The translations under genes were made by a program, and so were the position numbers. This document shows, piece by piece, positions 19,362 through 62,857 of a DNA stretch of 64,000 nt (position 1 is its first letter; each line of letters opens with the position of its first letter). Origin of the DNA: Smithella sp. (GTDB lineage: Bacteria > Desulfobacterota > Syntrophia > Syntrophales > Smithellaceae); the NCBI GenBank assembly GCA_049523355.1, contig JBEKMY010000001.1, positions 8,962-72,961 of the forward strand. Direction: 5' to 3'. The notes under the pieces were generated by a model. That model ran no database searches, was not told the origin of the DNA, and worked only from the letters and a program-made list of their open reading frames with translations.

Positions 19362-19475
19362 ATGTTCATCTCCTCAATGAAACCCGGATATTGCAAGCAT
19401 AGTGCAACAATATCTTCCGGTTGAATTGATCCCGCAGCCAAAGATATCGGGATTTGTACCTCTTAAAGTTATAAT

Positions 19476-19510
19476 AAAAAAGGCCATGGGTTTTTCACCC
19501 ACGGCCTTTT
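19476..19510 (-). terminator. Attenuator terminator of the leu operon
   Basis: Minus strand AAAAGGCCGTGGGT-GAAAA-ACCCATGGCC-TTTTTT hairpin with U tract. Confidence 0.85.
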
Positions 19511-19532
19511 AGGTAATCAGTTATTTTAAATG

Positions 19533-19652
19533 CTAGTGATGACCTAAAAACGATGGGTAGGCGGCCTTAATTAAAAGGCGCAACAGGGCGATTCCCAGAA
19601 GCAGAGGCAGGATATTGATTGCACATTTCTGATTTTTCGCTATGTCCGACAT
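19533..19652 (-). CDS. Leu-rich leader peptide (LeuL-like, 39 aa; not in the ORF track)
   Basis: MSDIAKNQKCAINILPLLLGIALLRLLIKAAYPSFLGHH*; 8 Leu in codons 15-27; its 3' part is complementary to the terminator 5' arm. Confidence 0.8.
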   Translation of the reverse strand: MSDIAKNQKCAINILPLLLGIALLRLLIKAAYPSFLGHH

Positions 19653-19684
19653 CGTTTTTACAGCCTTCGTTAAAATAATAATGA

Positions 19685-19713
19685 ATACTAATGCAAAAAA
19701 TAATTATTGTCAA
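19685..19713 (-). promoter_or_regulatory. sigma70 promoter of the leu leader
   Basis: Minus strand TTGACA-N17-TAGTAT. Confidence 0.7.
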
Positions 19714-20126
19714 AATATTTTTTAGACTTGGTAAAAATTTTTCACACTGATGACAGTATGTTTTTATAGTCTGAAGAAATGCGCTATTTTTTTATGGTTC
19801 ACATAATTACAGTTTTCAGTCGTTAATAAAAAATAGGAAATACAGTATGATAGCATTATGAGTTATGAATTGAAGTTAAGATTAAAGGGTGATTAAGTGT
19901 TGGAGAAAGAGATTTTATTGGGGATGCAACCATTGATACAAAATAACTAAACAATTCGAAGAATATTGCCCACTAAGTCGTTTCAGCGGAAGTCTCTTAG
20001 AATTTATTTAATGTTGGCGTTATATTGTCCGAAAAGTACATTCCATGAAAAATATAAGAAGGTTTTTGTCTATTCAAGCTCCCTATCAGGATTAAAGCTT
20101 ATCTATAAGATTTTTAAAAAATTTAC

Positions 20127-20155
20127 TTGACAAAAACATCTATAAAAATTAGATT
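20127..20155 (+). promoter_or_regulatory. sigma70 promoter of the tRNA cluster
   Basis: TTGACA-N17-TAGATT with AT-rich UP region. Confidence 0.7.
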
Positions 20156-20242
20156 CCACAATTCGCTTAAGGGCGTAGTTGTGTGCTTTTTTGCATTTTA
20201 AAGCGTAAATTGTTGATATAAAAAGATATTTAGGTGGGATTT

Positions 20243-20318
20243 GCTGGCGTAGCTCAATCGGTAGAGCAGCTGATTTGTAATCAGCAGGTTGCGGGTTCGA
20301 GTCCCATCGCCAGCTCCA
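20243..20318 (+). tRNA. tRNA-Thr(TGT)
   Basis: GCTGGCG acceptor stem, CTGAT-TTGTAAT-CAG anticodon region, GTTCGAG, encoded CCA. Confidence 0.97.
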
Positions 20319-20341
20319 GTTTGTCTATTAACTTATATACT

Positions 20342-20426
<85 letters not shown>

Positions 20427-20449
20427 GGGATTATTTGAAATTGAAATAA

Positions 20450-20525
20450 GCGGGAGTAGCTCAGTGGCTAGAGCGTCAGCCTTCCAAGCTGAGGGTCGCG
20501 GGTTCGAATCCCGTTTCCCGCTCCA
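20450..20525 (+). tRNA. tRNA-Gly(TCC)
   Basis: GCGGGAG acceptor stem, CTTCCAA loop, GTTCGAAT, CCA. Confidence 0.97.
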
Positions 20526-20566
20526 GATATTTCATAGAATAAGGGCAAAAGTTTATTAAAGATTGC

Positions 20567-20642
20567 GCCCACGTAGCTCAGTTGGTAGAGCACATCCTTG
20601 GTAAGGATGAGGTCACCAGTTCAATCCTGGTCGTGGGCTCCA
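20567..20642 (+). tRNA. tRNA-Thr(GGT)
   Basis: GCCCACG acceptor stem, TTGGTAA loop, GTTCAAT, CCA. Confidence 0.97.
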
Positions 20643-20655
20643 GTTAAGGAGAATT

Positions 20656-20805
20656 ATGCGAAATAATATTATTTTGGCTTGTACGGAATGCAAGCAAAGA
20701 AATTATACGACGACAAAAAATAAGCGGACCATGCAAAACCGTCTGGAAATGAAAAAATATTGCAAGTTTTGCCGAGGGCATAAACTGCACAGGGAAACCA
20801 AGTAG
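20656..20805 (+). CDS. rpmG: 50S ribosomal protein L33, zinc-binding type (not in the ORF track)
   Basis: [49 protein letters not shown]; AAGGAG RBS. Confidence 0.96.
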
Positions 20806-20817
20806 TAAATTTGGTAT

Positions 20818-20894
20818 AGGCCAGTAGCTCTAATGGATAGAGCGCCGGACTCCAAATCCGGATGCTGGGGGTTCAAGTCCCTCCTGGCCTGCCA
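20818..20894 (+). tRNA. tRNA-Trp(CCA)
   Basis: AGGCCAG acceptor stem, CTCCAAA loop, GTTCAAG, CCA; canonical position between rpmG and secE. Confidence 0.96.
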
Positions 20895-20922
20895 TTTTTT
20901 CTTTATTTAAGGATTTTAAAAT

Positions 20923-21126
20923 ATGGAAAAAATAAAAGAAGCGATTCAAAAGATAACTCAGTTTATCAAAGAAGCTAAGATTGAGTTAAAGAAAGTTACC
21001 TGGCCGACTCCGAAACAAACGATGGCTTCTACGGCAGTTGTAATAATTTTAGTTTTCATTCTTTCAATTATTCTGGGCATTTTTGATTTTGCCCTCGCCA
21101 AAGCGGTTAAACTTATATTAGGTTAG
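20923..21126 (+). CDS. secE: Preprotein translocase subunit SecE
   Basis: ELKKVTWP plus one TM. Confidence 0.95.
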   Translation: MEKIKEAIQKITQFIKEAKIELKKVTWPTPKQTMASTAVVIILVFILSIILGIFDFALAKAVKLILG

Positions 21127-21130
21127 AAAA

Positions 21131-21661
21131 ATGGCTTTTAAATGGTACGTTGTTCATACTTATTCCGGATATGAGAATAAGGTAAAAATAAGTCTAGAGG
21201 AAAGAATTGAGATAACGGGCACTCAGGCTTATTTTTCTGACATTCTTATTCCCGAGGAAGATGTTGTGGAATTGATTTCAGGGGAAAAGAAAAATTCCAA
21301 ACGTAAGTTTTTCCCGGGGTATATTCTTGTCCGAATGGAAATGAATGATGAGGCTTGGCACGTTGTAAAAGATACTCCCAAAGTTACCGGTTTCATCGGC
21401 AGCAAAGATAAACCTTCGCCCATACCTGATAAAGATGTGGAAAATTTAAAGTTCAGGATTGATGAAGGGACTTTAAAACCAAAACCTAAGTTCAAATTCG
21501 ATGTAGGTGATCATGTAAGAATTATTGACGGGCCTTTTACTAATTTTGATGGAATTATTGACGAATTAAAACCGGAAAAAAGTAAATTAAGAGTTATCGT
21601 AAGTATTTTTGGCAGGCCGACACCGGTGGAATTGGATTTTATTCAGGTAACTCAGGGTTAA
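21131..21661 (+). CDS. nusG: Transcription termination/antitermination factor NusG
   Basis: WYVVHTYSGYE, FPGYILV, KOW GPF, IFGRPTPVEL. Confidence 0.97.
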   Translation: MAFKWYVVHTYSGYENKVKISLEERIEITGTQAYFSDILIPEEDVVELISGEKKNSKRKFFPGYILVRMEMNDEAWHVVKDTPKVTGFIGSKDKPSPIPDKDVENLKFRIDEGTLKPKPKFKFDVGDHVRIIDGPFTNFDGIIDELKPEKSKLRVIVSIFGRPTPVELDFIQVTQG

Positions 21662-21718
21662 TGTGTTTATTGGCGGAACAGATAAGCTTTAAAAATATTT
21701 AGATCAGGGTGATTCAAC

Positions 21719-22144
21719 ATGGCAAAAAAAATTATTGCGAATATTAAATTACAAATAAAAGCGGGTAAGGCAACTCCTTCGCCTCCTATCGGTCCGGCGT
21801 TGGGACAGCACGGCGTAAATATTATGGAATTCTGCAAAGCTTATAACGCTATGACGCAAAATCAGGAAGGAATGATTATTCCTGTGGTGATTACCGTTTA
21901 TGCCGACAGATCGTTTACATTTATAACAAAAACACCTCCGGTATCCGTGTTGCTTAAACAAGCGGCTAAAATTGCCAAAGGAGCCAGCGATCCGAAGAGG
22001 GAAAAAGTTGGAACAGTTACGGCCGGGCAGGTGAAAGAAATAGCTGAATTAAAGTATAAAGATTTAAATGCTGTAAATATTGAAGGCGCTATAAAGATAA
22101 TTGCCGGTACGGCAAGGTCAATGGGAATTGAAATCACAGGTTAA
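21719..22144 (+). CDS. rplK: 50S ribosomal protein L11
   Basis: [24 protein letters not shown]. Confidence 0.98.
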
Positions 22145-49556: not shown

Positions 49557-51869
49557 TTGAATTCTGTTAACCAAGTTGAGTTTATGCGAAAAGAAAGTAG
49601 CCGCTATATTGAAAAAAGAGGAAGCATAAATCAAATAAGCCAACACCCTGAGCTATTATCGAAGGTATACATTAGCCTTAAAAGCGGGAAATGTGTTATT
49701 CTTTTTTATTTTGACATTGCCCGATTTCATGAAATCCAGCAAGTCGCCGGTTTTGAGAGCGCCCAGCATATTATTGATTTATTTAATGAAACGATAGCGT
49801 ATGGCCTGAAAGAATTATACAAAAAAGAAATTAGTATATTATCTGTTGAAAGTCTATGGGGAGATGATTTCATTGTCTTTGCTGAGACTATCAAATTTCC
49901 TACACTGGCAACTCTGGAATATCTTTCTACTGCTTACCGTAAACAAATTAAAGAAAGCATGAACAAAGAAATTCTGCGTCTCACGGGACGGGATATGGAT
50001 GTACATGTCGGTTACTCAATAATTACCGAGAGTGTCCCTAACGTGGAAATGCAGCTTTACAACGCAATAAAGAGAGCATTTGGCATAGCAAAAGGATTTA
50101 TTAACATGAAATCTGTTAAGTATCTTCCCGAGTTCAAAGACATCCTCGACCAGAAGAAACTGTATTCTGTGTACCAACCCATTATATCCATTCGTTCCGC
50201 TGTTATCCTGGGCTGGGAAGCCCTGATCAGGGGTGCTGAAAACAGTTATTTCCAAGGTCCTGAAAACATTTTTTCATTTGCGGAGTCTGAAGGTCTCCTT
50301 TTTCCTTTGGAAAAAATATGCCGCGAATCGGCTTTAAATAATCTTGGAGAACTCGGATCAGACCAGAAGATATTTATAAACGTCCATCCGAATACTATTA
50401 ATGATCCTGCTTTTACAGAAGGAGAAACCATCAGAATCATCCAAGATCTTCATATCAAAACTAAAAATGTTGTTTTTGAGATCACGGAAAGGCATCATAT
50501 TGATGATTTTATATCATTAAACAGAACACTGACACACTATCGTGATCAGGGGTTTCTGATAGCCGTGGATGATTTAGGATGCGGTTTTTCCAATCTTCAG
50601 TCCATCGCTGAAATCCGCCCTGATTATATCAAAATCGATATGTCTTTGGTCAGGGGAATTCATAAAGATGGCGTCAAGAAAGCTTTGATGGAAACCTTTG
50701 TCACCTTTGCCGAAAAGATCGGCTCTGAAATCATTGCTGAAGGTATAGAAGAAGAGGCAGAGATGGCTGCATTGGTCGACATTGGTGTGCATTACGGTCA
50801 AGGTTATTTCTTTGGCAAACCGGCTTACCCCAAACAAATTACTCCGGAAGAAGCATATTTGAAAACGCTTCATTTTGTTACGAATGGACGTCATAACCTT
50901 TTCAAACAAGCATTTCCTATAGGCGACATGGTCGATAAAGTTGTCGGTATCGACGAACAAACAGTAGTAAAGGATGTGAAGGCTATATTTGAAGAAAACA
51001 CAGCACTCTCCGGAATTGTAGTTGTTGAAAACAATAAACCCTGCGGCTTGGTCATGCGCCAGCATCTGGACAAGCATCTTGGAAGAAAATACGGATATGC
51101 ATTGTATAGTGATAAACCCATTTCCAAAATTATGAATAAAAATCCACTCATTGTAGCCGACAACACACCTATCGAACTTGTATCTCAGATCGCCATGAAC
51201 CGTAATAAAATGAACCTCTATGACAGTATCATAGTCACCAGAGATGAATTGCTACACGGAGTTGTCAGTGTTCAAATCATTCTTGATACCATGACAAGAA
51301 TCAGGTTGGAATTGGCCAAAGGCGCCAATCCGCTGACAGGTCTCCCCGGCAATATTGCTATAGAGCAAGAGCATTCCAGATGCGCTAAAAATGACAAACC
51401 TTTCAGTGTCATTTTTATCGATCTTGATAATTTTAAATCTTATAATGACAAATACGGATTTGAAAAAGGCGATGAGGTTCTTATTTATACAGCTAATATA
51501 CTTAAAAATGGACTTGAGAAATGCTGTAAAAATTATTATTTTCTCGGACACATAGGAGGAGATGATTTTATTATTTTTACAACAGATGATACAGTTGATT
51601 CATTGTGCAGCTTTTTGATAGAAAGATTCGATTCCGGTATTAAGGATTTATACAGTCTTGAAGATAGACAGGCAGGCGGTATTATGGCCTGTGACCGCTC
51701 AGGACAAGAGAGATGGTTTCCCTTTGTTTCCGTTTCATTGGCTGTTCTTGACTGTATCGCTGAAACCGGAAAGGACATGAAAGATATATCCAGCAGAGGG
51801 GCGAAGTTAAAGCAATACGCCAAATCAATGCCCGGAAGCTTATACGTACGTGATCGCAGAAGTGAATGA
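49557..51869 (+). CDS. c-di-GMP turnover protein: degenerate GGDEF - EAL - CBS pair - GGDEF
   Basis: WGDDF; YQPI, WEALIRG, FEITE, DDLGCG, IKID, IAEGIE, GQGY; CBS pair; NPLTGLPGN, DLDNFKSYND, GGDDF; TTG start after GGAGG. Confidence 0.9.
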   Translation: MNSVNQVEFMRKESSRYIEKRGSINQISQHPELLSKVYISLKSGKCVILFYFDIARFHEIQQVAGFESAQHIIDLFNETIAYGLKELYKKEISILSVESLWGDDFIVFAETIKFPTLATLEYLSTAYRKQIKESMNKEILRLTGRDMDVHVGYSIITESVPNVEMQLYNAIKRAFGIAKGFINMKSVKYLPEFKDILDQKKLYSVYQPIISIRSAVILGWEALIRGAENSYFQGPENIFSFAESEGLLFPLEKICRESALNNLGELGSDQKIFINVHPNTINDPAFTEGETIRIIQDLHIKTKNVVFEITERHHIDDFISLNRTLTHYRDQGFLIAVDDLGCGFSNLQSIAEIRPDYIKIDMSLVRGIHKDGVKKALMETFVTFAEKIGSEIIAEGIEEEAEMAALVDIGVHYGQGYFFGKPAYPKQITPEEAYLKTLHFVTNGRHNLFKQAFPIGDMVDKVVGIDEQTVVKDVKAIFEENTALSGIVVVENNKPCGLVMRQHLDKHLGRKYGYALYSDKPISKIMNKNPLIVADNTPIELVSQIAMNRNKMNLYDSIIVTRDELLHGVVSVQIILDTMTRIRLELAKGANPLTGLPGNIAIEQEHSRCAKNDKPFSVIFIDLDNFKSYNDKYGFEKGDEVLIYTANILKNGLEKCCKNYYFLGHIGGDDFIIFTTDDTVDSLCSFLIERFDSGIKDLYSLEDRQAGGIMACDRSGQERWFPFVSVSLAVLDCIAETGKDMKDISSRGAKLKQYAKSMPGSLYVRDRRSE

Positions 51870-51977: not shown

Positions 51978-52097
51978 GTTGTTTTTTAGCGGCAAAAAAT
52001 GTATTAACTTTTTAAAGGCGTTTTTGCTAATGCCATTTCGATGAATTGTTTTGTTGAAGCATTAATTTGCATACAAAATAACAGTGGAGGTCTGATT

Positions 52098-52358
52098 ATG
52101 GCAGAAAAGAAAATTGGCGAAGTAATGAAGTATTTTTCGAAACCTTCCGTGGCGGCGGTAAAAATAACGGAAGGCGAATTATCTGTAGGCGACAGCATAA
52201 AATTATCCGGACATACTACTGATTTCACGGATGTTATCGAATCAATGGAAGTAGAAAATAAATCCGTTCAAAAGGCTGTAGCCGGCGACTTCATTGGTGT
52301 CAAAGTTTCCGATCGCGTTCGTCCGGGCGATGAAGTGTTTAAAATAATACCGGATTAA
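52098..52358 (+). CDS. Small translation-elongation-factor-like beta-barrel protein (EF-Tu domain II / U32 C-terminal-like)
   Basis: KIGEVMKYFSKPSVAAV, LSVGDSI, GHTTDF, ESME, VRPGDEVF; GGAGG RBS. Confidence 0.7.
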   Translation: MAEKKIGEVMKYFSKPSVAAVKITEGELSVGDSIKLSGHTTDFTDVIESMEVENKSVQKAVAGDFIGVKVSDRVRPGDEVFKIIPD

Positions 52359-52475: not shown

Positions 52476-53174
52476 ATGTCTAAAATTCTGATTGTTGATG
52501 ACGAACAGGACATAGTAGAACTCATTTCTTATAATCTGGAGAAAGAAGGGTTCTCTACAATAAAAGCCTATGACGGTGTTTCCGTCTTCAATATAATCGC
52601 GACGAAAAAACCTGACCTGCTGATTCTGGATTTGATGTTGCCCGGCATGAATGGGCTGGACATCTGTAAGAAGATTCGTGCCAATCCGGCGACCGCTGAT
52701 TTGCCGATAATCATGCTTACAGCCAAGGGCGACGAATTAGATAAAATAATCGGGCTGGAAATCGGCGCCGATGATTACATTACCAAACCTTTCAGTGTCA
52801 AAGAATTGGTCGCCCGTGTTAGAACTATCTTGAGGCGTTCGCAGGACAAGCCCAAAACTGCATTGCAGGAACAGTTTAATTATAAGGGGCTGGCAATAAA
52901 TTACTCTTCCTGCACCGTGAAGGTTGACGGCAAACCCGTAACGTTAAGCCCCACGGAGCTTAAACTTCTTTTCTTTTTTTCCCGTAATCCCGGCAGAGTC
53001 TATTCGAGAAATCAGCTTCTTGATCAGGTATGGGGCGATGATACTTTTATCACCGACCGCGCGGTGGATGTTCACATTCGCCGCCTGCGCAGCCAGATTG
53101 AGAAAGATGTGGAAAATCCTCGTTATGTTTTGACAATTCGGGGATTCGGTTATAAATTTACCGAGATCAAATGA
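52476..53174 (+). CDS. phoB: PhoB/PhoP-type OmpR-family response regulator
   Basis: REC (LDLMLPG, GADDYITKPF) plus winged helix (SRNQLLDQVWG, RAVDVHIRRLR, TIRGFGY); pst/phoR locus context. Confidence 0.85.
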   Translation: MSKILIVDDEQDIVELISYNLEKEGFSTIKAYDGVSVFNIIATKKPDLLILDLMLPGMNGLDICKKIRANPATADLPIIMLTAKGDELDKIIGLEIGADDYITKPFSVKELVARVRTILRRSQDKPKTALQEQFNYKGLAINYSSCTVKVDGKPVTLSPTELKLLFFFSRNPGRVYSRNQLLDQVWGDDTFITDRAVDVHIRRLRSQIEKDVENPRYVLTIRGFGYKFTEIK

Positions 53175-53382: not shown

Positions 53383-53416
53383 CCTTCATCATAATGAAAC
53401 ATTGAAAAGTTATTAT
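53383..53416 (+). promoter_or_regulatory. Candidate Pho box plus -10 element of the four-gene operon
   Basis: CCTTCATCATA ATGAAACATTG is 15/22 identical to the pstS box; AACATT-N7-TATTAT has the same spacing as pstS AACATT-N7-TATGAT. Confidence 0.55.
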
Positions 53417-53458
53417 CTTTCCGCAAAGTTAAAGGAATATATTGGGAGGAGATATTAT

Positions 53459-55903
53459 TTGAGTAAAATCAACACGACCGCATTTAATTATACGGCAAGG
53501 CTGGATCATATTGTTCCCAAATCCGTTAAAGAGATAGCGGAACTGATCGGCGTTAAATATGATTATCTGGGTTTAAATGCCGCATCACTTCCTTTTGCGC
53601 CTTCGGATACTACCGCGGGCAGCGAATCGGAAATGCAGACGGTAGTAGTGGGCAGCAGGGACAATGTTGACCTGCCCATTTTCATAGAACAATCCAACTA
53701 TTTTGCTAACACCAAACGGCGGGCAAAGTCCGGAGATACGTCCAGAAAAGTAATGACCGGCCTGGAAAAATACTTGAATACGAACACTGAAGGTGTCTGG
53801 GAAAACAGCCAGGTTCGTTTTCCCCGGTATAAGATGGGAAAACTTGCCGAGAATATTTTTCATCAGGATATTCTGGCGGACAAAAAAAATCCGTCTGCGG
53901 GCCTTAGATTGGATTTAAACAAATTCATTTTTCAGAAAAACGATCTTGAATATATCCGGGTTCCGATCAGTTATCTCCTGAAGCTGGCTCTGGCGGAGAT
54001 AATTGATCCGCAGCAAAAAGTACATCCTCTGATCAGCAAGACCGGATTGAATATCATTCAATATTTTTTAAATGATAATACATCTCCGGAAACTTCATCT
54101 TTTTATGTTGCTTCCATGCAGTCGGAGGCCGGCATGGGGCGTGTCGTAGCCAAGGAGACGGCTGTCCGCTTTTTATTAAGCCAGTTGCTGATCATGTATG
54201 CCAATCAAAAATATGCCTTGGAGGAAACCGGACAAAAGGCAATGATATTTTCTTCACCGCACCCGCCGATGAGACAGAAAATTTTAAGTAATTGTGTTTC
54301 TGATGCCTTTTATCGGGAATTGTTTATGAACCCCTGCCTTTCCGGATGGGATAAAGGAGAAGAAAAGCATGAATACATGCATCTGTGTCACCGTGTTTTG
54401 AGCCGCAGCCAATTCAATGCTGTCCTGAAACTCCGGGAAGCGGGAATCATTACCAGCAATCTGGTATCGCTGCCTAATTTATCCAATATCAGCCTCGCTA
54501 ATAACGGGACACATGTAAGTTTGGGAAGCCGGAAAATAAGCAGTATGCTACAGGATTCTTCATCTGGATTTTCTGTAAAAGATGAAAAAAATATCGGTGA
54601 TCTGGTCGTTAAAATTGTCGAGCATTTTCTACCGCTTTTTGTCGGTACATACAGCGCCGCGCCTTATCGTATGGATTTTTCCGATTTCCATCCGGAGAAA
54701 GCCCTTGGCTTTCTTCCGCATGAGTTGGATTATACTCATTTACGAATGCTCTGGCGGCGGTGGCAGAAGAAAGCCAATCTGACCATGTTAGGCAAATCCA
54801 TAACTCCTTTTGGTCCCAAATGGATAGATAACTTAATCAGTGTGTTTTTCAGATTAAAAGGAGATTTTATTCCCGACTTCCGGCTGATTGATTATCTGAT
54901 AGTCTTGATGAGCACGGACAGAAGTCCCGCCTTAAACGGCGAGTTGTATAACAGCCAGCCTTTAAAAGAAGACCTTGCCGATCTTGGCGTTTTTGACACG
55001 CAGATGTCGCTTTATCTTCTCGAGAAGCTTCGCGAGTATAAAGTCATGGGCTTTTCCGGTTTTGAAGGGCGTCATTACAGCCTCTTTGAACGTTTTACCG
55101 AGGATATGGGGCAGGCTGTAACTATGCAGAATCTTCTCTATCTTTTAGCTTTTAAATATATTTTCTCGGGTCAGATAAGTCATGAGAATATTCCGGATGA
55201 TCCTTCCGTTGAAAGCGAGAGAAGGCAGATAATTTTCGGTTCGGCGATAGGTATTCCGACTTTCTTTGTGCATAACAAAACCGGCAATACCTTAATAAAA
55301 AAGATTATCGGCAAGACAAATCGCGTGCGCTCCAGTCGACGCTATCCGGGATACGTTCGCATTTACAACATCGAATACAGGCAGGCGCTTTTGAAAATTC
55401 TGCGTGAAGATGCGGCAGATCTTATTGAAATGCTGTCAATGAGAGAGAGCATCGACGAGCTTGAATTCCGTCTTAACGAGCCGGAACTTTATTCTGCCTG
55501 CGGCAGGCTGACGAGTGGCATTCTTAACACGGCAAAAGCCAGGTCGCCGCTTGATTTGACTGCCGATAAGTTTAATGAGGCGGCAGAGAAATATTACCGG
55601 ACAGATCTCCGCAATGGGCATATTCGGGAAGCATTTGAACTTCTTGGCGAAGATATGATCAAGCTGGATCATAAATCCGATGGTTTACGGCAGGACATCA
55701 GAAGTTTGCTTCATGCCGTATTGAAAGAAACAAATATAACAAAATTTTTAAATCAGGCCGAACGGGAAATCATTGAAGAAACCGCGTCCAAAGAGACGCT
55801 GGAAAAACTGGCCGGTATTATTTTAGTGCATATCCATTATAAGACTGAACTTAACCGTAAATTTCAAGAGATTAATGACAGGGAAAAAAACTATGCAGCA
55901 TAA
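53459..55903 (+). CDS. Large uncharacterised protein with GS/GCS/PafA-fold carboxylate-amine ligase motifs
   Basis: AGSESE (GxExE), WENS, NDNTSPE, NNGTHVSL (GxH), GFEGRH (ExR); TTG start after GGAGGAG (ORF open to 53402). The CDS is secure; the function is inferred. Confidence 0.6.
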   Translation: MSKINTTAFNYTARLDHIVPKSVKEIAELIGVKYDYLGLNAASLPFAPSDTTAGSESEMQTVVVGSRDNVDLPIFIEQSNYFANTKRRAKSGDTSRKVMTGLEKYLNTNTEGVWENSQVRFPRYKMGKLAENIFHQDILADKKNPSAGLRLDLNKFIFQKNDLEYIRVPISYLLKLALAEIIDPQQKVHPLISKTGLNIIQYFLNDNTSPETSSFYVASMQSEAGMGRVVAKETAVRFLLSQLLIMYANQKYALEETGQKAMIFSSPHPPMRQKILSNCVSDAFYRELFMNPCLSGWDKGEEKHEYMHLCHRVLSRSQFNAVLKLREAGIITSNLVSLPNLSNISLANNGTHVSLGSRKISSMLQDSSSGFSVKDEKNIGDLVVKIVEHFLPLFVGTYSAAPYRMDFSDFHPEKALGFLPHELDYTHLRMLWRRWQKKANLTMLGKSITPFGPKWIDNLISVFFRLKGDFIPDFRLIDYLIVLMSTDRSPALNGELYNSQPLKEDLADLGVFDTQMSLYLLEKLREYKVMGFSGFEGRHYSLFERFTEDMGQAVTMQNLLYLLAFKYIFSGQISHENIPDDPSVESERRQIIFGSAIGIPTFFVHNKTGNTLIKKIIGKTNRVRSSRRYPGYVRIYNIEYRQALLKILREDAADLIEMLSMRESIDELEFRLNEPELYSACGRLTSGILNTAKARSPLDLTADKFNEAAEKYYRTDLRNGHIREAFELLGEDMIKLDHKSDGLRQDIRSLLHAVLKETNITKFLNQAEREIIEETASKETLEKLAGIILVHIHYKTELNRKFQEINDREKNYAA

Positions 55904-56897
55904 TTATATCGAGCGGGATACCCGCCAAATAAAAAAAGAACAATTTTACGGCGATCAGGCTGTACAATTTCTATATGCCGATATCCGGGAGCGATCTTCG
56001 TGGCTCTTTCGCCAATTGACAAGCGCCAGAGTTTCGCGTGTGCTTAGTTATATGAACTATGATGGAATCCTTGCCGCAAGAATGAAGCATTATCTTGATA
56101 TACATAAACAATTGAATATTGAACCGCAAGAATGCCTGGATGCACCGGAGCGTTTGGATTCTCTAAGAAAAATATTCGAACGAAAAATTCGTTATTGGGA
56201 ATGCCGTCCCATGCCCAATGATCCGTGCGCTATTATATCACCAGCCGATTCTCGGATGCTGCTGGGATCGTTTTTGGAAGAATCTGGTTTGTTTGTTAAG
56301 GGAAAGTTTTTTGATTATGAAGAGATGTTTGGCTGTGATAAACGCACGTGGCTCACCGCCTTTCAGGATGGTGACTTTGCCGTTTTCAGGTTGACACCGG
56401 AAAAATATCATTACAACCATACACCCGTTGCAGGAAAAATTATCGATTTTTACCAAATCCCGGGTACTTATCACGCATGTAATCCCAATGCCGTTGTTTC
56501 CGTTGTAACGCCTTATTCCAAAAACAAGCGCTTCGTTACCATTTTTGATACGGATGTAGAAGGCGGGACTGGAGCTGGTTTAGTGGCCATGATTGAAGTA
56601 GTAGCGCTAATGATCGGCGATATAGTGCAGTGCTACAGCGAAAAGAAATATGAGAGTCCCATGCCTATTGGAACAGGAATGTTTGTGAATAAGGGTGTTC
56701 CCAAAAGTCTTTTTCGTCCCGGGAGTTCTACAGTGGTTCTAATATTTCAAAAAGATAGAGTGCGATTTGCGGATGATATTTCTGCCAACATGTTAAGGCC
56801 TTCCGCCGAAAGCATTTTCAGCAATGGTTTTGGCAAATCGCTGGTCGAAACCGATGTTAAGGTCAGATCGTATATTGCCACTTCTTGTAGTCATTAA
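55893..56897 (+). CDS. Phosphatidylserine decarboxylase-family pyruvoyl enzyme (substrate uncertain)
   Basis: FERK...RP, ISPADS, RLTPEKYHYNHTPVAG, FRPGSSTVVLIF self-cleavage motif; 11-nt overlap with the upstream gene. Confidence 0.85.
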   Translation: MQHNYIERDTRQIKKEQFYGDQAVQFLYADIRERSSWLFRQLTSARVSRVLSYMNYDGILAARMKHYLDIHKQLNIEPQECLDAPERLDSLRKIFERKIRYWECRPMPNDPCAIISPADSRMLLGSFLEESGLFVKGKFFDYEEMFGCDKRTWLTAFQDGDFAVFRLTPEKYHYNHTPVAGKIIDFYQIPGTYHACNPNAVVSVVTPYSKNKRFVTIFDTDVEGGTGAGLVAMIEVVALMIGDIVQCYSEKKYESPMPIGTGMFVNKGVPKSLFRPGSSTVVLIFQKDRVRFADDISANMLRPSAESIFSNGFGKSLVETDVKVRSYIATSCSH

Positions 56898-56942
56898 GAT
56901 CATATGAGATTATTTTTTAATCATGAGATGGAGGTAACAGTT

Positions 56943-57344
56943 ATGAGGCAGGAAAAAATACAGTTTATCAGGAATGCTCTGGTAAAAAAGATGGAAGAAC
57001 TCTGGTCGAGCGCGGACAATACAATTTCTAAAATGAAAAATACCGAAGGCAAATTTGCCGATCCCTTTGACCAGGCTGCAATCGAGACGAATAAATTTGT
57101 TGAATTGGCCTGCAGGGATAGAGAAAGAGAATTAATCCTCGACATCAAGGAAACGATTATGCGCATTGACAGGGGCTTGTTCGGCATTTGCGACCATTGC
57201 GGCAGGGTCATCCATGAAAAAAGACTGTTAATTGAACCGATGAGCAAATTGTGTGTCGAATGCCAGGAGGAACGCGAGATTTATAATAAGCAAAAGAGCA
57301 GACGATCAGCTGCAAGGAGTATATCCTATAATCATGTACAATGA
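56943..57344 (+). CDS. DksA/TraR-family C4 zinc-finger transcription factor
   Basis: Coiled-coil tip DPFDQA (DxxDxA), FGICDHCG, RL..EP, CVECQE; GGAGG RBS. Confidence 0.88.
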   Translation: MRQEKIQFIRNALVKKMEELWSSADNTISKMKNTEGKFADPFDQAAIETNKFVELACRDRERELILDIKETIMRIDRGLFGICDHCGRVIHEKRLLIEPMSKLCVECQEEREIYNKQKSRRSAARSISYNHVQ

Positions 57345-58386
57345 AATTTTTACATTGGCTCTTGCAGGAGCGATAGTCGTTTTATTTTCATGGGCTTTTA
57401 GAACACTGCCCGAAGAAAATTGGCAAGTTCTTGCCTGTCTGCCTATACGCAAGGGGCTAGACGGAACTTGGCAAGGCATTAATTTAACCTATTACGGATT
57501 TTTTAATGCTTTTGCCTATCTGTTTGGGGTTGTCATGTTCCTGATCATGATGAGTTCTCAAAATATTAAGATTGCAGGCACCCTATCCCTTGTTATACCA
57601 TTTTTAGCGATCTGCATGCTGGCTTCCCGCCTGATTGCCCGCCTGGTGGAAAAAAAACGCCACACGTTTTCTGTGGGCGGCGCTTCCTTTGCCGGCATCC
57701 TGATTGCACCATGGATCATCTGGCTGGTCAATATGACATTAGGCGAGACGCTTGCGTTTCATTTACCGGTTTTGGAAACACTGGCGGTAATATTTATTGC
57801 TTATGCCTTCGGCGAAGGAACGGGGCGGCTTGCCTGTATCAGTTTTGGCTGCTGTTACGGGAAACCTATATCCGCATGTCATCCGTTAATTAAAAGAATC
57901 TTTCGTAAGTGGAATTTTGTGTTTTGGGGAAAGACGAAAAAAATTGCTTATGCCCAGCAACTTGAAGGTCAGGCTGTTATTCCCATTCAAGCACTCACAT
58001 CTGTTGTTTACACTGGAACAGGGTTTTTAAGCTTCTATCTTTTCCTGAAAGGTTTTTCAAGCGCAGCTTTGATAATCACTCTTATTGTGACGCAGGGCTG
58101 GCGTTTCGCTTCAGAATTTCTGCGAGCCGATTATCGGGGGCATGGTTTCATTTCCTCTTACCAGATTATGACATTGATTGCAATTTGTTATACCCTCGCG
58201 ATGGTTACACTTATCAAAGAACCAGATTACGGTTCTCCGAATCTGTTAAATGGTGTCATTTCACTCTGGAATCCCGGTATAATTGTTTTTCTGGTGGTTT
58301 TATGGGGAGTTGCCTTTGTATACGCAGGTAAGAGTAGCGTAACCTGCTCTTCAATAAATATCCAAATTGTAGAGAAGAATATTTAG
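57334..58386 (+). CDS. Divergent prolipoprotein diacylglyceryl transferase (Lgt)-family membrane protein
   Basis: Multi-TM; GEGTGRLACISFGCCYGKP, IPIQ, WRFASEFLRADYRG; 11-nt overlap with the dksA-like gene. Confidence 0.75.
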   Translation: MYNEIFTLALAGAIVVLFSWAFRTLPEENWQVLACLPIRKGLDGTWQGINLTYYGFFNAFAYLFGVVMFLIMMSSQNIKIAGTLSLVIPFLAICMLASRLIARLVEKKRHTFSVGGASFAGILIAPWIIWLVNMTLGETLAFHLPVLETLAVIFIAYAFGEGTGRLACISFGCCYGKPISACHPLIKRIFRKWNFVFWGKTKKIAYAQQLEGQAVIPIQALTSVVYTGTGFLSFYLFLKGFSSAALIITLIVTQGWRFASEFLRADYRGHGFISSYQIMTLIAICYTLAMVTLIKEPDYGSPNLLNGVISLWNPGIIVFLVVLWGVAFVYAGKSSVTCSSINIQIVEKNI

Positions 58387-58459: not shown

Positions 58460-58493
58460 TTGTCATCAAATTGTAACATTAAATATATATGAT
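58460..58493 (+). promoter_or_regulatory. Pho box and -10 element of pstS
   Basis: TTGTCATCAAA-TTGTAAC, then 10 nt, then TATGAT: the canonical Pho promoter geometry. Confidence 0.8.
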
Positions 58494-58524
58494 ATTTTTA
58501 AAAAAAATCAGGGAGGAACAGAAA

Positions 58525-59373
58525 ATGATTAATATTGTTAAGAAAATAATTTTCGGCATGGCTTTGGTAACTTTTATGGGTGGCTTTGCTGCTGCTGCCG
58601 ATTCCATAGTCATTAAAGGATCGACAACCGTTTTACCTATTGCGCAGGCTGTGCTCGAAGCCTATATGAAAGAAAATAAAGGCGTCCAGATTTCTTTATC
58701 GGGCGGAGGTTCCGGTGAGGGAATCAAAGCATTAATCGATCAATCCACGGATATAGCCGATTCCTCCAGAGAGATTAAAAAAGAAGAAATCGAATTAGCT
58801 GAATCCAAGGGAGTCAAACCTGTTGCCCATGTTATAGCCTATGATGCAATTATGCCGGTAGTAAATCCGAAAAATAATGTTCAAGGTTTATCAATTGATC
58901 AGTTAAGCCAGATATATCAGGGGAAAATTACCAACTGGAAGGAAGTAGGCGGCGCTGATTTAAAAATAGTCGTTATCTCCAGAGATTCTTCCTCCGGCAC
59001 ATTCGATTCATGGGATAACTTTGTTATGAAAAAAGCCAGAGTTGCTCCGACCGCACAGATGCTGGCATCCAACGGAGCAGTAGTCACAGCGGTTTCCAAA
59101 AATAAATATGCTATCGGTTATCTCGGTATGGGTTATGTAAATAGCAGTGTTAAAGGACTGAAAGTAAACGGCGTCATGGCTTCAGCCCAGACTGCATTAT
59201 CCAGACAATATCCAATGTCCCGGGAGCTTTACATGTACACTAACGGCCAACCTAAAGGTGAAGTTGCCAAATTTATCGCTTTTATTAAAAGTCCCAAAGG
59301 ACAGGAAATTGTAAAAAAAGAAGGCTTTGTGCCGCTTACGGGTTCCAAAGAAAGCAAAAAAGCTAAAAAATAA
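58525..59373 (+). CDS. pstS: Phosphate ABC transporter substrate-binding protein
   Basis: Signal peptide; KGSTTVLP, GGGSGEG, SSR, RDSSSGT, YPMSRELY. Confidence 0.95.
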   Translation: MINIVKKIIFGMALVTFMGGFAAAADSIVIKGSTTVLPIAQAVLEAYMKENKGVQISLSGGGSGEGIKALIDQSTDIADSSREIKKEEIELAESKGVKPVAHVIAYDAIMPVVNPKNNVQGLSIDQLSQIYQGKITNWKEVGGADLKIVVISRDSSSGTFDSWDNFVMKKARVAPTAQMLASNGAVVTAVSKNKYAIGYLGMGYVNSSVKGLKVNGVMASAQTALSRQYPMSRELYMYTNGQPKGEVAKFIAFIKSPKGQEIVKKEGFVPLTGSKESKKAKK

Positions 59374-59398
59374 ATTTTTTAGAAAATTGCTTTAATCG

Positions 59399-59424
59399 GG
59401 CAACCCCGCATTAACGGGGTTGCC
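59399..59424 (+). terminator. Stable hairpin after pstS (terminator or mRNA stabiliser)
   Basis: GGCAACCCCG-CATTAA-CGGGGTTGCC; no strong U tract. Confidence 0.6.
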
Positions 59425-59597
59425 GCTTACATTTACGAAAGAATATCTAAGTGACTATGGGTCACTATAAGATATTGTTAACGGATTTAGAAAAATCCGT
59501 GATAAAATAAAAAATAAATCGAATGAAAATTTAAATAAAAACGGCGTTCTCCCGGAAAAACTAATATTGAGAGGAATAGAGTTTAAAGGCGAAAATA

Positions 59598-60485
59598 ATG
59601 AAGAGAAAAACCAGAGAAAATATTATTAAATATATCTTTTTTTCTTTTGCGCTGGTGTCGATTGTTGTGCTGGGCCTGATTGTTCTTTCTCTTTTCCGCG
59701 AAGGAATGCCGATATTCAAATTAGTTTCCTTAAGTGATTTTATTTTAGGAAAAGATTGGTATCCGACATCCGATCCGCCATCTTTCGGCATTTTCTCCCT
59801 GATCGTGGGATCTGTTATTGTTACTTTCCTGGCCATTGTAATTGCCGTTCCTCTGGGAGTTCTTTCAGCGATCTACATCGCGGAAATCGCGCCGGTTTCA
59901 ATAAAAGAGATACTTAAATCGGTTATTGAGCTTTTAGCCGGAATACCTTCCGTAGTTTTAGGTTTTTTCGGCATGGTCATTGTCGCCCCATGGATGCAGC
60001 AGACTTTTGATTTGCCTACGGGTCTGAACATTATAAATGCCGCTGTGATACTGGCAATTATGGCAATACCGACTATATCCAGCATCTCGGAAGACGCTCT
60101 CTACGCCGTTCCCAACGAATTTAAAGAAGCGTCCTATGCTTTGGGCGCAACCAGATTTGAAACCATTGCCAAGGTGATTGTGCCTTCCGCGCTATCGGGC
60201 ATTTCCACAGCGGTAATACTGGGAATATCCAGAGCGATTGGTGAGACAATGGTTGTTTTGATGGTTGCGGGCGGAGCGGCGGCAATTCCGGGAAGTATTT
60301 TTGATTCGGTTCGGCCAATGCCGGCCAGCATCGCCGCGGAAATGGGAGAGGCGTCTTTTCGAGGCGCCCATTATCACGCTTTGTTCGCCATCGGCATAGT
60401 TTTGTTTTTTCTGACACTGGCGTTTAATCTGATTGCCGATTATCTTTCTCATAAGTTTCATCAATCAGGTTCGGCAACGCTTTGA
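59598..60485 (+). CDS. pstC: Phosphate ABC transporter permease PstC
   Basis: ELLAGIPSVV, EASYALGAT, RAIGETM. Confidence 0.95.
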   Translation: MKRKTRENIIKYIFFSFALVSIVVLGLIVLSLFREGMPIFKLVSLSDFILGKDWYPTSDPPSFGIFSLIVGSVIVTFLAIVIAVPLGVLSAIYIAEIAPVSIKEILKSVIELLAGIPSVVLGFFGMVIVAPWMQQTFDLPTGLNIINAAVILAIMAIPTISSISEDALYAVPNEFKEASYALGATRFETIAKVIVPSALSGISTAVILGISRAIGETMVVLMVAGGAAAIPGSIFDSVRPMPASIAAEMGEASFRGAHYHALFAIGIVLFFLTLAFNLIADYLSHKFHQSGSATL

Positions 60486-60497
60486 TTGGATTGATAT

Positions 60498-61376
60498 ATG
60501 GATGAATCAATGAGCAGTTCAATGAAGTGGCGATATTTAAAACAGACACTTTTCTTCGGCATTGTGCGATTATCTTTTTTGATCATTGCTCTTTCTCTGG
60601 GCGGACTTTTATTATATATTATAATTAACGGTATCGGCGTCATCAGTTGGGATTTCATCACCAAAATGCCCACGGATTCCATGACGAAAGGCGGGATCAT
60701 GCCGGCCATTGTGGGCACTATATATTTAACTGTTGGGGCGATTTGCATTGGTTTGCCGCTGGGTGTGGCTTCGGCAATCTATTTAACGGAATATGCCGTA
60801 CAAGGCAGGGTGATCAGAATTATCAAGATAGGCATAAATTGTCTGGCAGGAGTACCCTCCGTTGTTTTCGGACTATTTGGTCTTGGTTTGTTTGTAGTAA
60901 TGCTGAAATTTGGTTCGAGCATTCTGGCCGGTTCACTAACCCTCGGATTTCTCATTCTGCCGACGATCATTGGCGCTGCCGAGGAAGCGTTGAAATCTGT
61001 GCCGCAAACATTCCGCGAGGCGTCTCTGGCGCTGGGCGTTTCCAAGTGGCAAACTATTTTCCGGATTGTTTTACCCAACGCCCTGCCCGGTATTTTGACA
61101 GGCTCTATTTTAGGCATCGGCCGCGCTGCCGGAGAGACTGCGCCTATTATGTTTACAGCGGCGGCTTTCTTTACCGCAAAATTACCGGGTTCCATTTTTG
61201 ATGAAGTTATGGCTCTGCCCTATCATATATACGTTCTGGCTACGGCGGGCACTCATATTGAGGAAACCAGACCGATGCAATTTGGGACCGTGCTTGTTCT
61301 TATTGCTGTTGTTCTCGGGATCGATCTGTTAGCCATCATTATCCGCAGCCGCATGAGAAGAAATAAAAGGTGGTAA
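60498..61376 (+). CDS. pstA: Phosphate ABC transporter permease PstA
   Basis: [32 protein letters not shown]. Confidence 0.95.
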
Positions 61377-61378
61377 GT

Positions 61379-62137
61379 ATGGATGTGAACATGATAATTA
61401 GTCTGCATAATGTAAATTTCTACTACGGCCAGTCACGAGCCCTGAATGACATCTCCATGGATTTTCCTGAAAAAAAGGTGACCGCGCTTATTGGTCCATC
61501 AGGTTGCGGTAAATCCACATTGCTGAGGCTGTTGAATCGAATGAATGATCTTATTATCGGGACAAGAGTGGAAGGGAAAGTCGTTTTTGAAGGAAAAGAT
61601 ATCTATGGCGATCACATTGACCCGGTAGAAATTCGCCGCAAGATTGGTATGGTATTTCAAAAACCCAATCCTTTTCCGAAAACTATTTATAATAATATCT
61701 CCTATGGACCTAAACTAAACGGATTGGGAAACAGCGATCTTGATACTCTGGTGGAACAAAGCCTAAAGCAAGCTGTTTTGTGGGATGAAGTAAAAGATTT
61801 ATTGAATAAATCGGCAATGGCTCTCTCCGGAGGACAGCAGCAGCGGCTTTGCATAGCGCGCGCGCTGGCTATGAAACCGGATGTTTTGTTAATGGACGAG
61901 CCGACTTCCGCGCTTGATCCTGTTTCCACGGCGAAAATTGAAGAGTTGATTGAAGAGTTGAAAAAGGACTATACTATTATTATTGTGACGCATAATATGC
62001 AACAGGCTGCCAGAATTTCCGATGAGACGGCGTTCTTTTATCTGGGAAATCTTGTCGAGTATAATAAAACTGATAAAATATTTACCAATCCGGATATAAA
62101 GCAAACAGAGGATTATATAACAGGCAGATTCGGCTGA
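61379..62137 (+). CDS. pstB: Phosphate ABC transporter ATP-binding protein
   Basis: [39 protein letters not shown]. Confidence 0.97.
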
Positions 62138-62155
62138 GAATCCGTTGGAGGAATA

Positions 62156-62857
62156 ATGATGGAAGAAAGAAGACACACCAGTTCGCATTATGAAATAGAA
62201 CTGCAGGAAATAAAAAACGGACTTATTTACATTGGCGCGCTTACCGAAAAGGCCATTCAGAATGCGATGAAATCCCTTTCGGAAAGAGACTCCGAGATGG
62301 CGCATAAGGTAATCAAAGACGATGATGAAATCGATAAACTCGATACGGAGATGGAGGAACGTTGCATTCGAAATCTGGCGCTGCGTCAACCGACCGCCAT
62401 CGATCTGAGGTTTATTACCACGGCGATCAAGATTACCGGCCATCTGGAAAGAATCGGCGATATGGCGGTGAATATTGCCGAGAAAGCTATCCAGTTAAAC
62501 GAAGAGCCTAAACTCAAACCCTACATTGATTTGCCCCGCATGGCCGACCTTGTTGTAGAGATGGTTAATAATTCGCTGGATAGTTTTATCAGAAGTGATT
62601 TGAATATTGCCGAAAAAGTCCGTCAAACGGAACAGATAACGGATGACCTTAATGAACAAATTTTCCGTGAGCTTTTAACTTTTATGATGGAAGATTCCAA
62701 ATGCATCCACAGGGCTCTGCTGATAATGCACGTATCTAAAAATCTGGAGCGCATTGCCGATCATGCCAAAGGTATTGCGGATATGGTAACTTATATGGTA
62801 ACGGGTGAAAACGTTCGACATCAGACCAGAGATATCAGCGCGAAGGAGACGGTGTGA
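62156..62857 (+). CDS. phoU: Phosphate signalling protein PhoU
   Basis: QPTAIDLR, LERIGD, LERIADHA. Confidence 0.96.
   Translation: MMEERRHTSSHYEIELQEIKNGLIYIGALTEKAIQNAMKSLSERDSEMAHKVIKDDDEIDKLDTEMEERCIRNLALRQPTAIDLRFITTAIKITGHLERIGDMAVNIAEKAIQLNEEPKLKPYIDLPRMADLVVEMVNNSLDSFIRSDLNIAEKVRQTEQITDDLNEQIFRELLTFMMEDSKCIHRALLIMHVSKNLERIADHAKGIADMVTYMVTGENVRHQTRDISAKETV

Follow-up and report, generated by a model that had tools for sequence, protein, structure and literature searches.

The phosphorus-sparing membrane lipids known so far are glycolipids, ornithine-type aminolipids and betaine lipids. A further class was described chemically by Ding et al. (2024, PMC11181052), whose paper is used here as far as parts of its main text and its Dataset S1 go. 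According to these, in Desulfatibacillum alkenivorans PF2803T at 0.5–1.5 µM phosphate, phosphatidylethanolamine, phosphatidylglycerol and cardiolipin are almost wholly replaced by glucuronosyl glycerolipids and by sulfur-containing “N-butyramide cysteine glycerols” (BACys). The latter yield a head-group fragment C7H13O3N2S+ (m/z 205.064), and their diacylglycerol (DAG), acyl/ether glycerol (AEG) and dietherglycerol (DEG) cores are the same as those of the phospholipids. Those parts of the paper propose no genes for BACys (the SI Appendix lies outside this scope), the part of a 2026 citing paper that was available adds nothing on genes, and no gene assignment for BACys-type lipids was found in the literature searched, subscription journals not being covered; in the same literature “butyramide cysteine” occurs only in Ding et al., the other matches to “BACys” being unrelated strings. 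Here we consider a gene at positions 53459..55903 (+ strand) of a 64,000-nucleotide stretch of a contig (JBEKMY010000001.1) from a peat-dwelling Smithella sp., referred to as the window, which encodes an 814-aa hypothetical protein. On the basis of predicted fold, motifs and genomic context, we consider it probable that this protein is an ATP-dependent carboxylate-amine (amide-bond) ligase of a new, sequence-orphan family with the fold of the glutamate–cysteine ligases (GCL), YbdK and PafA-Dop, and that its gene is the first of a Pho-regulated three-enzyme module for BACys synthesis.

The open frame spans positions 53402-55903 of the + strand and codes for 833 aa when counted from its first TTG. 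The TTG at 53459, preceded by GGGAGGAG, gives the 814-aa protein, whose length fits that of most relatives (802-827 aa). A preliminary description of the gene, made by eye, had listed four ordered catalytic motifs of the GS/GCS/PafA-Dop fold, and all four were located in the protein in that order: TAGSESEMQ at residues 52-60 (E56, E58), FLNDNTSPETS at residues 203-213 (D206, E211), ANNGTHVSL at residues 347-355 (H352), and GFEGRHY at residues 534-540 (E536, R538). The conservation of the acidic, histidine and arginine residues, which the same description had named as a check, was examined in an alignment (A1) of 39 full-length members of the ligase family, sharing 28-86% identity with the 814-aa protein. 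D206, N207, P210, E211, G350, H352, S357, G534, E536 and R538 are invariant in A1, and E56 and E58 are kept in at least 90% of its proteins; thus, every residue of the E/E/D/E/H/R set is either invariant or retained at that level. Other invariant positions include C310, H311, E388, R525, R588 and R589. Judging from this alignment, the strictness of the motif conservation is far beyond chance. Several members of A1 also end in short similar tails (..AAPVYRTGNG, ..SVYRAGHG, ..ASIRRA), which follow variable C-terminal helices.

The same order of motifs is found in two enzymes encoded by the E. coli K-12 genome, that is, GshA (GLERE 25-29, DFAEALLEF 60-68, GVHYNFS 148-154, and IEVRS 327-331) and YbdK (GIELEMQ, HDITESMLELATD, GQHVHVG, and VEVRV). 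In this order, E56/E58, D206..E211, H352 and E536/R538 would correspond to E27/E29, E67, H150 and E328/R330 of GshA, which we take to be its Mg ligands. An AlphaFold2 model of the 814-aa protein, built on an 84-sequence alignment (mean pLDDT 92, pTM 0.93, disorder only at residues 1-14), places all four motifs on predicted beta-strands (51-58, 211-213, 351-357 and 534-540).

The model was compared with the Protein Data Bank (PDB) in two ways. A Foldseek search returned in its top rows only chains of GshA, GshF, YbdK, GCL, PafA and Dop; its E-values were weak (best 2.6e-3), and the fold assignment rests on the Z-scores of VIA-align. According to the latter, the beta-sheet catalytic core of the model matches this superfamily, the closest structures being E. 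coli GshA (Z 16.1, 411 residues aligned, root mean square deviation (rmsd) 4.3), GshF (Z 15.8, 379 aligned, rmsd 4.2), YbdK (Z 15.2, 336 of 354 aligned, rmsd 3.6), PafA (Z 14.3, 366 aligned, rmsd 3.7), and Dop (Z 14.0, 347 aligned, rmsd 3.6). Plant GCL (Z 12.1, 351 aligned, rmsd 4.0), yeast GCL (Z 10.0, 419 aligned, rmsd 4.4) and the glutamine synthetases (Z up to about 9.1-9.4; best row with 277 aligned, rmsd 4.2) followed, and the next unrelated chain among the Foldseek candidates had a Z of 4.2. Moreover, in a search independent of Foldseek over 48,161 representative chains, ranks 1-19 were all occupied by the GCL/YbdK/PafA-Dop/GS superfamily; below them, Z was at most 5.7 and only the C-terminal helices were aligned. 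The model and the structure search thus agree with the proposal that the protein belongs to this superfamily, which is the only one matched, and they support a GCL/YbdK-type fold for the 814-aa protein. The large insertions that had been suspected from its length are also borne out, as just 336-414 of its 814 residues align to known enzymes. As to the suggestion of “a ligase or a deamidase”, the fold does not by itself decide between the two; the gene context favours the ligase, because the product proposed below contains an amide bond.

The comparison with the individual enzymes shows both likenesses and differences. GshA (PDB 1VA6, 2D32, 1V4G) and the GCL domain of GshF (3LN6, 3LN7) align over 379-414 residues with Z 15.5-16.1 and rmsd 4.0-4.3; GshA shares with the 814-aa protein the motifs ExE, D/E..E, GxH and ExR, carried on strands in the same order, and the reaction that we propose for the latter (glutamate, cysteine and ATP) is that of GshA. 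However, the identity in the structural alignments with GshA and GshF is only 11-13%, comparisons by hidden Markov model (HMM) and by profile against profile are blank, the 814-aa protein is about 300 residues longer than GshA, and its gene lies in a lipid module at a Pho locus rather than in the glutathione pathway. YbdK and the GCS2 family (PDB 1R8G, 1TT4; PF04107) align with Z 14.7-15.2 and rmsd 3.5-3.6; since 330-336 of their approximately 354 residues are covered, the minimal ligase core is contained in full in the 814-aa protein. YbdK and the 814-aa protein have almost the same first motif (GIELEMQVV and GSESEMQTVV, respectively), whereas the latter is more than twice as long and PF04107 matches 0 of the 39 family members. 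PafA and Dop (PDB 4BJR, 4B0R, 7OYH) align over 347-366 residues with Z 13.8-14.3, and the D..PE motif of the 814-aa protein resembles the one that the preliminary description had quoted for Dop. Nevertheless, PafA and Dop act on the protein substrate Pup, whereas the 814-aa protein is found among lipid and phosphate genes; it has no match to the Pfam Pup-ligase model, so that only the fold is in common.

At the level of sequence, the family appears to be an orphan. No Pfam or NCBIfam family matched the 814-aa protein at E up to 10; phmmer against the PDB sequences gave only three chance rows (E 1.8), and the HMM of the ligase family a single one (E 3). The A1 profile, when compared by hhalign with the single E. 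coli sequences of YbdK and GshA, obtained probabilities of 0.3% and 0.4%, respectively. Pfam models related to GS and GCL (including PF04107, PF04262 and Pup ligase) were matched by 0 of the 39 A1 members at E up to 10; the Pfam matches obtained over A1 were to 13 unrelated families, each in one or two members, with a best E of 0.0088. The ESM Atlas returned only unnamed clusters of the family itself. These data are in keeping with the earlier suggestion of a distinct family, for which Pfam, NCBIfam, the HMM search of the PDB and hhalign give no sequence-level link. The family is not small. Of 8,000 candidates scored in a word-indexed search, 2,953 proteins reached E ≤1e-3; HMMER, run exhaustively over 1.84 billion cluster representatives, retrieved 750 at E ≤1e-3 and 264 at E ≤1e-30. 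At 50% identity, at least 750 clusters belong to the family. Among the 120 matches listed, those named by their source are called “hypothetical”, except for two “DivIVA” labels from JGI. A GshA-type gene (PF04262) was not found in this genome, nor was a GCS2 gene (PF04107) in this genome or in 20 relatives.

The gene encoding the 814-aa protein is accompanied by two genes for divergent paralogues of lipid enzymes. The order in the window is the following: PhoB-like regulator, ligase, phosphatidylserine decarboxylase (PSD)-like gene, DksA-type gene, Lgt-like gene, pstS, pstC, pstA, pstB, phoU, and sensor kinase. A PSD-like gene follows on the same strand, at a distance of no more than 1.5 kb, in all 32 of the loci from named genomes, in 65 of the 68 loci from metagenomes (with identities down to 51%), and in 28 of 29 loci from a sample taken evenly over the phylum, the one miss being L128. 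An Lgt-like gene was present no farther than 8 kb away in all 29 named-genome loci considered and in 42 of 46 metagenome loci. Furthermore, among 401 sampled genomes of the phylum, the ligase occurs in 44 (34 of 254 genera) and the Lgt paralogue (E up to 1e-114) also in 44, with both genes in 43; these counts take related genomes as they stand, so that the genomes are not independent of each other, and the two discordant ones are assembled in 130 and 250 contigs. A distribution this patchy, combined with a co-occurrence that is almost perfect, speaks for a single functional unit composed of the ligase, the PSD-like and the Lgt-like gene. In the loci compared, this three-gene module is nearly invariant and often lies beside phosphate genes. 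Besides D. alkenivorans, named carriers include Desulfonema ishimotonii, Desulfococcus, Geobacter pickeringii and Geomonas, and anaerobes that live in peat, sediments and aquifers widely possess the ligase family.

The first partner (55875..56897, + strand), which overlaps the ligase gene by 29 nt, encodes a divergent PSD paralogue of 340 aa (PF02666, 130 bits). It falls below every NCBIfam equivalog cut-off for PSD (129 bits vs. 371) and is thus not the housekeeping PSD; a canonical PSD is encoded elsewhere in the genome (171 bits vs. 131 for the module paralogue). In ten sequences including that of E. coli PSD, D90, H144 and G253 (E. coli numbering) are invariant, with H147 and S254 being kept in at least 90% of them. 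Therefore, the PF02666 match is accompanied by the self-cleavage residues D90, H147 and S254, the last within the G-S motif. The second partner (57253..58386, + strand; 377 aa from the GTG at 57253) encodes a divergent paralogue of Lgt, the diacylglyceryl transferase (PF01790, 33.7 bits with a cut-off of 24.9); its relatives start at about the internal Met 57334, and a canonical Lgt is found elsewhere in the genome (246 bits vs. 35). In 11 sequences including E. coli Lgt, Y26, R143, G154, R239 and E243 are invariant, so that the PF01790 match comes with the arginines and the tyrosine of diacylglyceryl transfer, while the paralogues have Cys at N146 and E151, and A/I/V in place of H103; all eight positions we take to be critical in Lgt. 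By the residues retained, both partner enzymes look CATALYTICALLY competent. The Lgt paralogues possess an additional N-terminal hydrophobic segment and a C-terminal extension. The distribution of their lysines and arginines is inverted with respect to Lgt, with blocks of 0-1 such residues against blocks of 3-5 and 5-8 (the block borders being approximate); the former presumably correspond to stretches that are cytoplasmic in E. coli Lgt and the latter to periplasmic ones. According to the positive-inside rule, the active face of the Lgt paralogue would look into the cytoplasm, where it would meet the soluble ligase and its product.

The link with phosphate is given, in the first place, by the position of the module between a phoB-like gene and pstSCAB-phoU with a kinase. 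The regulator (52476..53174, + strand) is a PhoB-like response regulator of the OmpR family (Pfam Response_reg and Trans_reg_C; TIGR02154 with 277.1 bits, the cut-off being 296.2); pstS, pstC, pstA, pstB and phoU (58489..62857, + strand) match Pfam PBP_like_2, BPD_transp_1 (twice), ABC_tran and PhoU, respectively, and a sensor histidine kinase (sCache_like, PAS_9, HisKA) follows from 62854. A Pho-box-like motif, TCATCATAATGAAACATT, is located at 53386..53403 (+ strand), 56 nt upstream of the ligase start, and is followed by a TATTAT hexamer of the -10 type; a second one, TCATCAAATTGTAACATT, lies at 58463..58480 (+ strand) upstream of pstS. Elements of the TCATCATAATGAAACATT type resemble the enterobacterial (E. 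coli) Pho box. The pattern TCATCANANTGNAACATT, which was derived from the ligase-upstream and pstS sites themselves, matches with up to one mismatch only these two sites in the 3.8-Mb genome, and the reversed control pattern has zero matches; a third, weaker match in the window (two mismatches) is at 19736-19753 on the - strand. When E. coli Pho-box half-sites were searched for at a threshold of at least 10 of 14 positions, the site upstream of the ligase was missed, as it scores 9/14. Of 24 upstream regions from related loci, which share descent, 21 carry a Pho-box-like element between -71 and -78 according to a regular expression, and the remaining three have near-matches at the same position; a hexamer of the TAT..T type follows about 10 nt downstream. 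The variant of the element in L004, L006 and L030 is CTGTCATCATAGTGAAAC. Of the 29 loci outside the Smithella family, only three (L120, L121 and L124) match 8-9 of 10 positions at -75 or -76. As a consideration on the annotation of pstS, its longest open reading frame (ORF), from 58489, begins just 9 nt past the Pho-box-like motif, and the true start is probably a Met 12 codons downstream (MINIVKK..., about 58525).

In addition, the flanks of 17 longer or exceptional loci were surveyed, with 72 of their 215 ORFs being examined. Phosphate genes occur in the flanks of nine of these loci, encoding PstS/PstC-type proteins, PhoU, PhoH, porin O/P, a phosphonate-binding protein, polyphosphate kinase, CHAD and a Zn phospholipase C, and a match to acid phosphatase slightly below the cut-off was also noticed. 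Pho control of the module in the Smithella lineage is a well-supported prediction, as is its putative role in phosphate-sparing lipid remodelling. As for expression, contigs 95-99% identical to the window, assembled from wetland and peat metatranscriptomes (four libraries from four studies), cover parts of the ligase, PSD-like, DksA and Lgt-like genes, and two of them span the PSD-like/DksA junction; they derive from relatives and the libraries may hold DNA, so that this is a weak sign of expression.

Gene content by itself would lead to a phosphorus-free phospholipid analogue, through an Lgt-type transfer to a cysteine acceptor and a PSD-type decarboxylation. The pathway that we envisage would start with the ligase, which would link glutamate, through its gamma-carboxyl, to the cysteine amine, forming a dipeptide of the gamma-Glu-Cys type. 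The Lgt paralogue would then move the diradylglyceryl moiety of a phospholipid (e.g., phosphatidylglycerol) onto the cysteine thiol, creating a thioether and releasing glycerol phosphate, from which phosphorus could be recycled. PSD removes CO2 from phosphatidylserine, which is an alpha-amino acid tethered by its side chain; in the third step, its paralogue would take CO2 off the glutamyl residue, whose alpha-carboxyl is free, so that a 4-aminobutanoyl (“butyramide”) group remains. The end product would be an N-(4-aminobutanoyl)-S-diradylglyceryl-cysteine, i.e., a lipid of the phosphorus-free BACys class. This assignment is suggested by the fact that the amide (GCL-type), the thioether (Lgt-type) and the loss of CO2 (PSD-type) map one-to-one onto the features of the head group. 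Moreover, BACys and phospholipids would share their cores because the whole diradylglyceryl unit would come from an existing phospholipid.

The elemental composition, both of the head group and of the whole lipid, is that expected for the product of the three enzymes. Gamma-Glu-Cys minus CO2 is C7H14N2O3S, and the m/z calculated for DAG 35:0 plus this unit minus H2O is 799.6229, that is, the lipid listed as BACys-DAG 35:0 (C45H87O7N2S, m/z 799.6228) in Dataset S1 of Ding et al. (2024). A further likeness, within the parts of that paper used here, is that phosphate limitation induces BACys in a species, D. alkenivorans, which has an orthologue of the ligase; a difference is that BACys are a chemical finding with a tentative structure. 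Under the name of D. alkenivorans DSM 16219, NCBI lists a protein that shares 53% identity with the 814-aa protein along an ungapped stretch of 750 residues. The ligase of genome G383 is 97% identical to this D. alkenivorans protein, and there the genes for the ligase, the PSD paralogue and the Lgt paralogue are contiguous. The BACys assignment and the order ligase, Lgt paralogue, PSD paralogue are plausible. More tentatively, with a confidence just short of even, we propose that the three genes are complete and sufficient for an exchange of head groups, in which the ligase would supply the dipeptide, the Lgt paralogue (probably facing the cytoplasm) would swap the phosphoglycerol via a thioether, freeing glycerol phosphate, and the PSD paralogue would trim the result.

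Several points weigh against this proposal. We infer the substrates, the order of the steps and the regulation of the module, and the function as a whole is drawn from fold, context and the match of a mass formula. Homology at the sequence level to the GCL, GCS2 or Pup-ligase families is undetectable, and the equivalence of the motifs to those of GshA is suggested by their order along the chain and by predicted strands. Among the partners, three residues of E. coli Lgt (H103, N146 and E151) are not retained in the Lgt paralogue. In two of the 68 metagenome loci (L056 and L063) there is no PSD-like or Lgt-like gene in the 4-7 kb downstream, and in L067 the two partner genes are found upstream of the ligase and in the opposite orientation. 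The two Pho-box-like sites were found by a pattern of their own making, and, beyond the Smithella family, TCATCANANTGNAACATT as a simple pattern is not recognisable ahead of the majority of homologues. On the chemical side, the gamma-glutamyl-cysteamine isomer has the identical formula, which leaves the order of the steps ambiguous, and Smithella would be a BACys producer on the grounds of its genes. The strain of the orthologue, DSM 16219, is presumably PF2803T. Finally, the structure of BACys is itself tentative, coming from tandem mass spectra (MS2) alone (PMC11181052).

Among the alternatives, the one that survives best, although we deem it unlikely, keeps the pathway and the product class and has the ligase acting later or on other substrates. 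In a first version, the Lgt paralogue would produce S-diradylglyceryl-cysteine, and the PSD paralogue would decarboxylate it to S-diradylglyceryl-cysteamine, a counterpart of phosphatidylethanolamine that lacks phosphorus; to the amine of this compound, the ligase would add glutamate at the membrane surface. In a second one, the PSD paralogue would make 4-aminobutyrate from glutamate, and the ligase would join it to cysteine. The C7H14N2O3S head group arises by every route, so that the masses published in the parts of the paper used here fit all of them equally. The first version gains from the resemblance of S-diacylglyceryl-cysteine to phosphatidylserine, the normal substrate of PSD; moreover, at its N-terminus the PSD paralogue can be aligned with E. 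coli PSD, where this region presumably binds the membrane, and the approximately 400 residues of the ligase outside the GCL core could serve membrane or lipid binding. However, known GCL and YbdK enzymes take small soluble substrates, and the natural acceptor of Lgt is an N-acylated (peptide) cysteine, to which gamma-Glu-Cys is closer than free cysteine. Furthermore, the interpretation of the MS2 data given by Ding et al. in the same parts of their paper (PMC11181052) is that of a butyramide on an intact cysteine, which fits a decarboxylation of the glutamyl residue and not of the cysteine.

Somewhat less likely still appears a phosphate-linked module with a product other than BACys, such as another kind of modified lipid, or a small peptide or metabolite that carries a lipid; the ligase would then join another carboxylate and another amine. 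The function was indeed inferred from context, and the family is present in 34 of the 254 sampled genera while lipid data concern one species; in addition, a DksA gene lies inside the operon of Smithella relatives, and the GT4 glycosyltransferase gene in or next to the module of three of the 17 surveyed loci hints at variants. Nevertheless, each of the three independent enzyme chemistries accounts for one of the three features of the head group of BACys, the species that produces BACys has the module, and the literature searched offers no alternative product.

The last alternative, a Dop-like amidase or deamidase (the amidase role being ranked least likely) or an inert scaffold instead of a ligase, can draw on the closeness of Dop and PafA to GCL in score (Z 14.0-14.3 vs. 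15.2-16.1), which the fold alone does not separate, but it is very improbable. The acidic, His and Arg residues of the motifs are all invariant, or close to it, throughout the family, which speaks against an inert protein; GCL and YbdK are the best matches, with 336 of 354 YbdK residues aligned, and the proposed product needs an amide to be made and includes no amidase step.

Turning back to the locus, in which we favour the ligase of a BACys module, some neighbouring features deserve mention. The gene between those of the PSD and Lgt paralogues (56904..57344, + strand) encodes a DksA-type C4 zinc-finger protein (Pfam DksA_N and zf-dskA_traR; TIGR02420 with 98.7 bits, the cut-off being 115.5). 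Among the loci compared, this position is peculiar to the Smithella relatives; in more distant ones, the DksA gene follows the Lgt-like gene, lies upstream of the module, or is missing. A transcription factor of the stringent response is thus encoded within a lipid module. In three of the 17 loci surveyed, a gene for a large GT4 glycosyltransferase is inside or beside the module (L089 10346-15150, L098 10373-12850, and L113 2517-4964); these proteins of 815-845 aa have the GT4 domain at the C-terminal, and they could represent the glucuronosyl-lipid synthase accompanying BACys lipids. DUF2062, Zn phospholipase C, polyphosphate kinase and class-3 lipase genes are found near the module in other loci.

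Upstream of the phoB-like gene, a 105-aa ORF (52041-52358) matches domain 2 of EF-Tu/EF-G alone and is kept at this position in many related loci; in G383, a 127-aa ORF resembling domain IV of EF-G lies directly upstream of the ligase gene. Stand-alone translation-factor domains thus occur beside Pho genes. Still farther upstream of the Pho locus, the region 49557-51869 encodes a 770-aa EAL-CBS-GGDEF protein (cyclic-di-GMP turnover), syntenic in close relatives, and GGDEF proteins flank the module in L089 and L098. Finally, the GC skew of the window passes from negative to positive at about 18000-22000, with a cumulative minimum near 18-20 kb, which could correspond to a replication origin or merely to a switch of the coding strand.

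If the proposed pathway is true, the module provides gene candidates for a class of membrane lipids that was described chemically in 2024 without genes, and about 3,000 “hypothetical proteins” gain a predicted fold and a testable role. It would represent a fourth phosphorus-sparing lipid strategy, in which a phospholipid is turned directly into a lipid containing sulfur and nitrogen, and a previously unknown route of membrane phosphorus recycling. The Lgt paralogue would be the first Lgt-type enzyme with a small-molecule acceptor, extending this chemistry beyond lipoproteins, just as the ligase would extend that of GCL beyond thiol-redox metabolism. In this case, the genes could mark phosphorus stress in anoxic settings and help to identify the sources of sedimentary lipid biomarkers.

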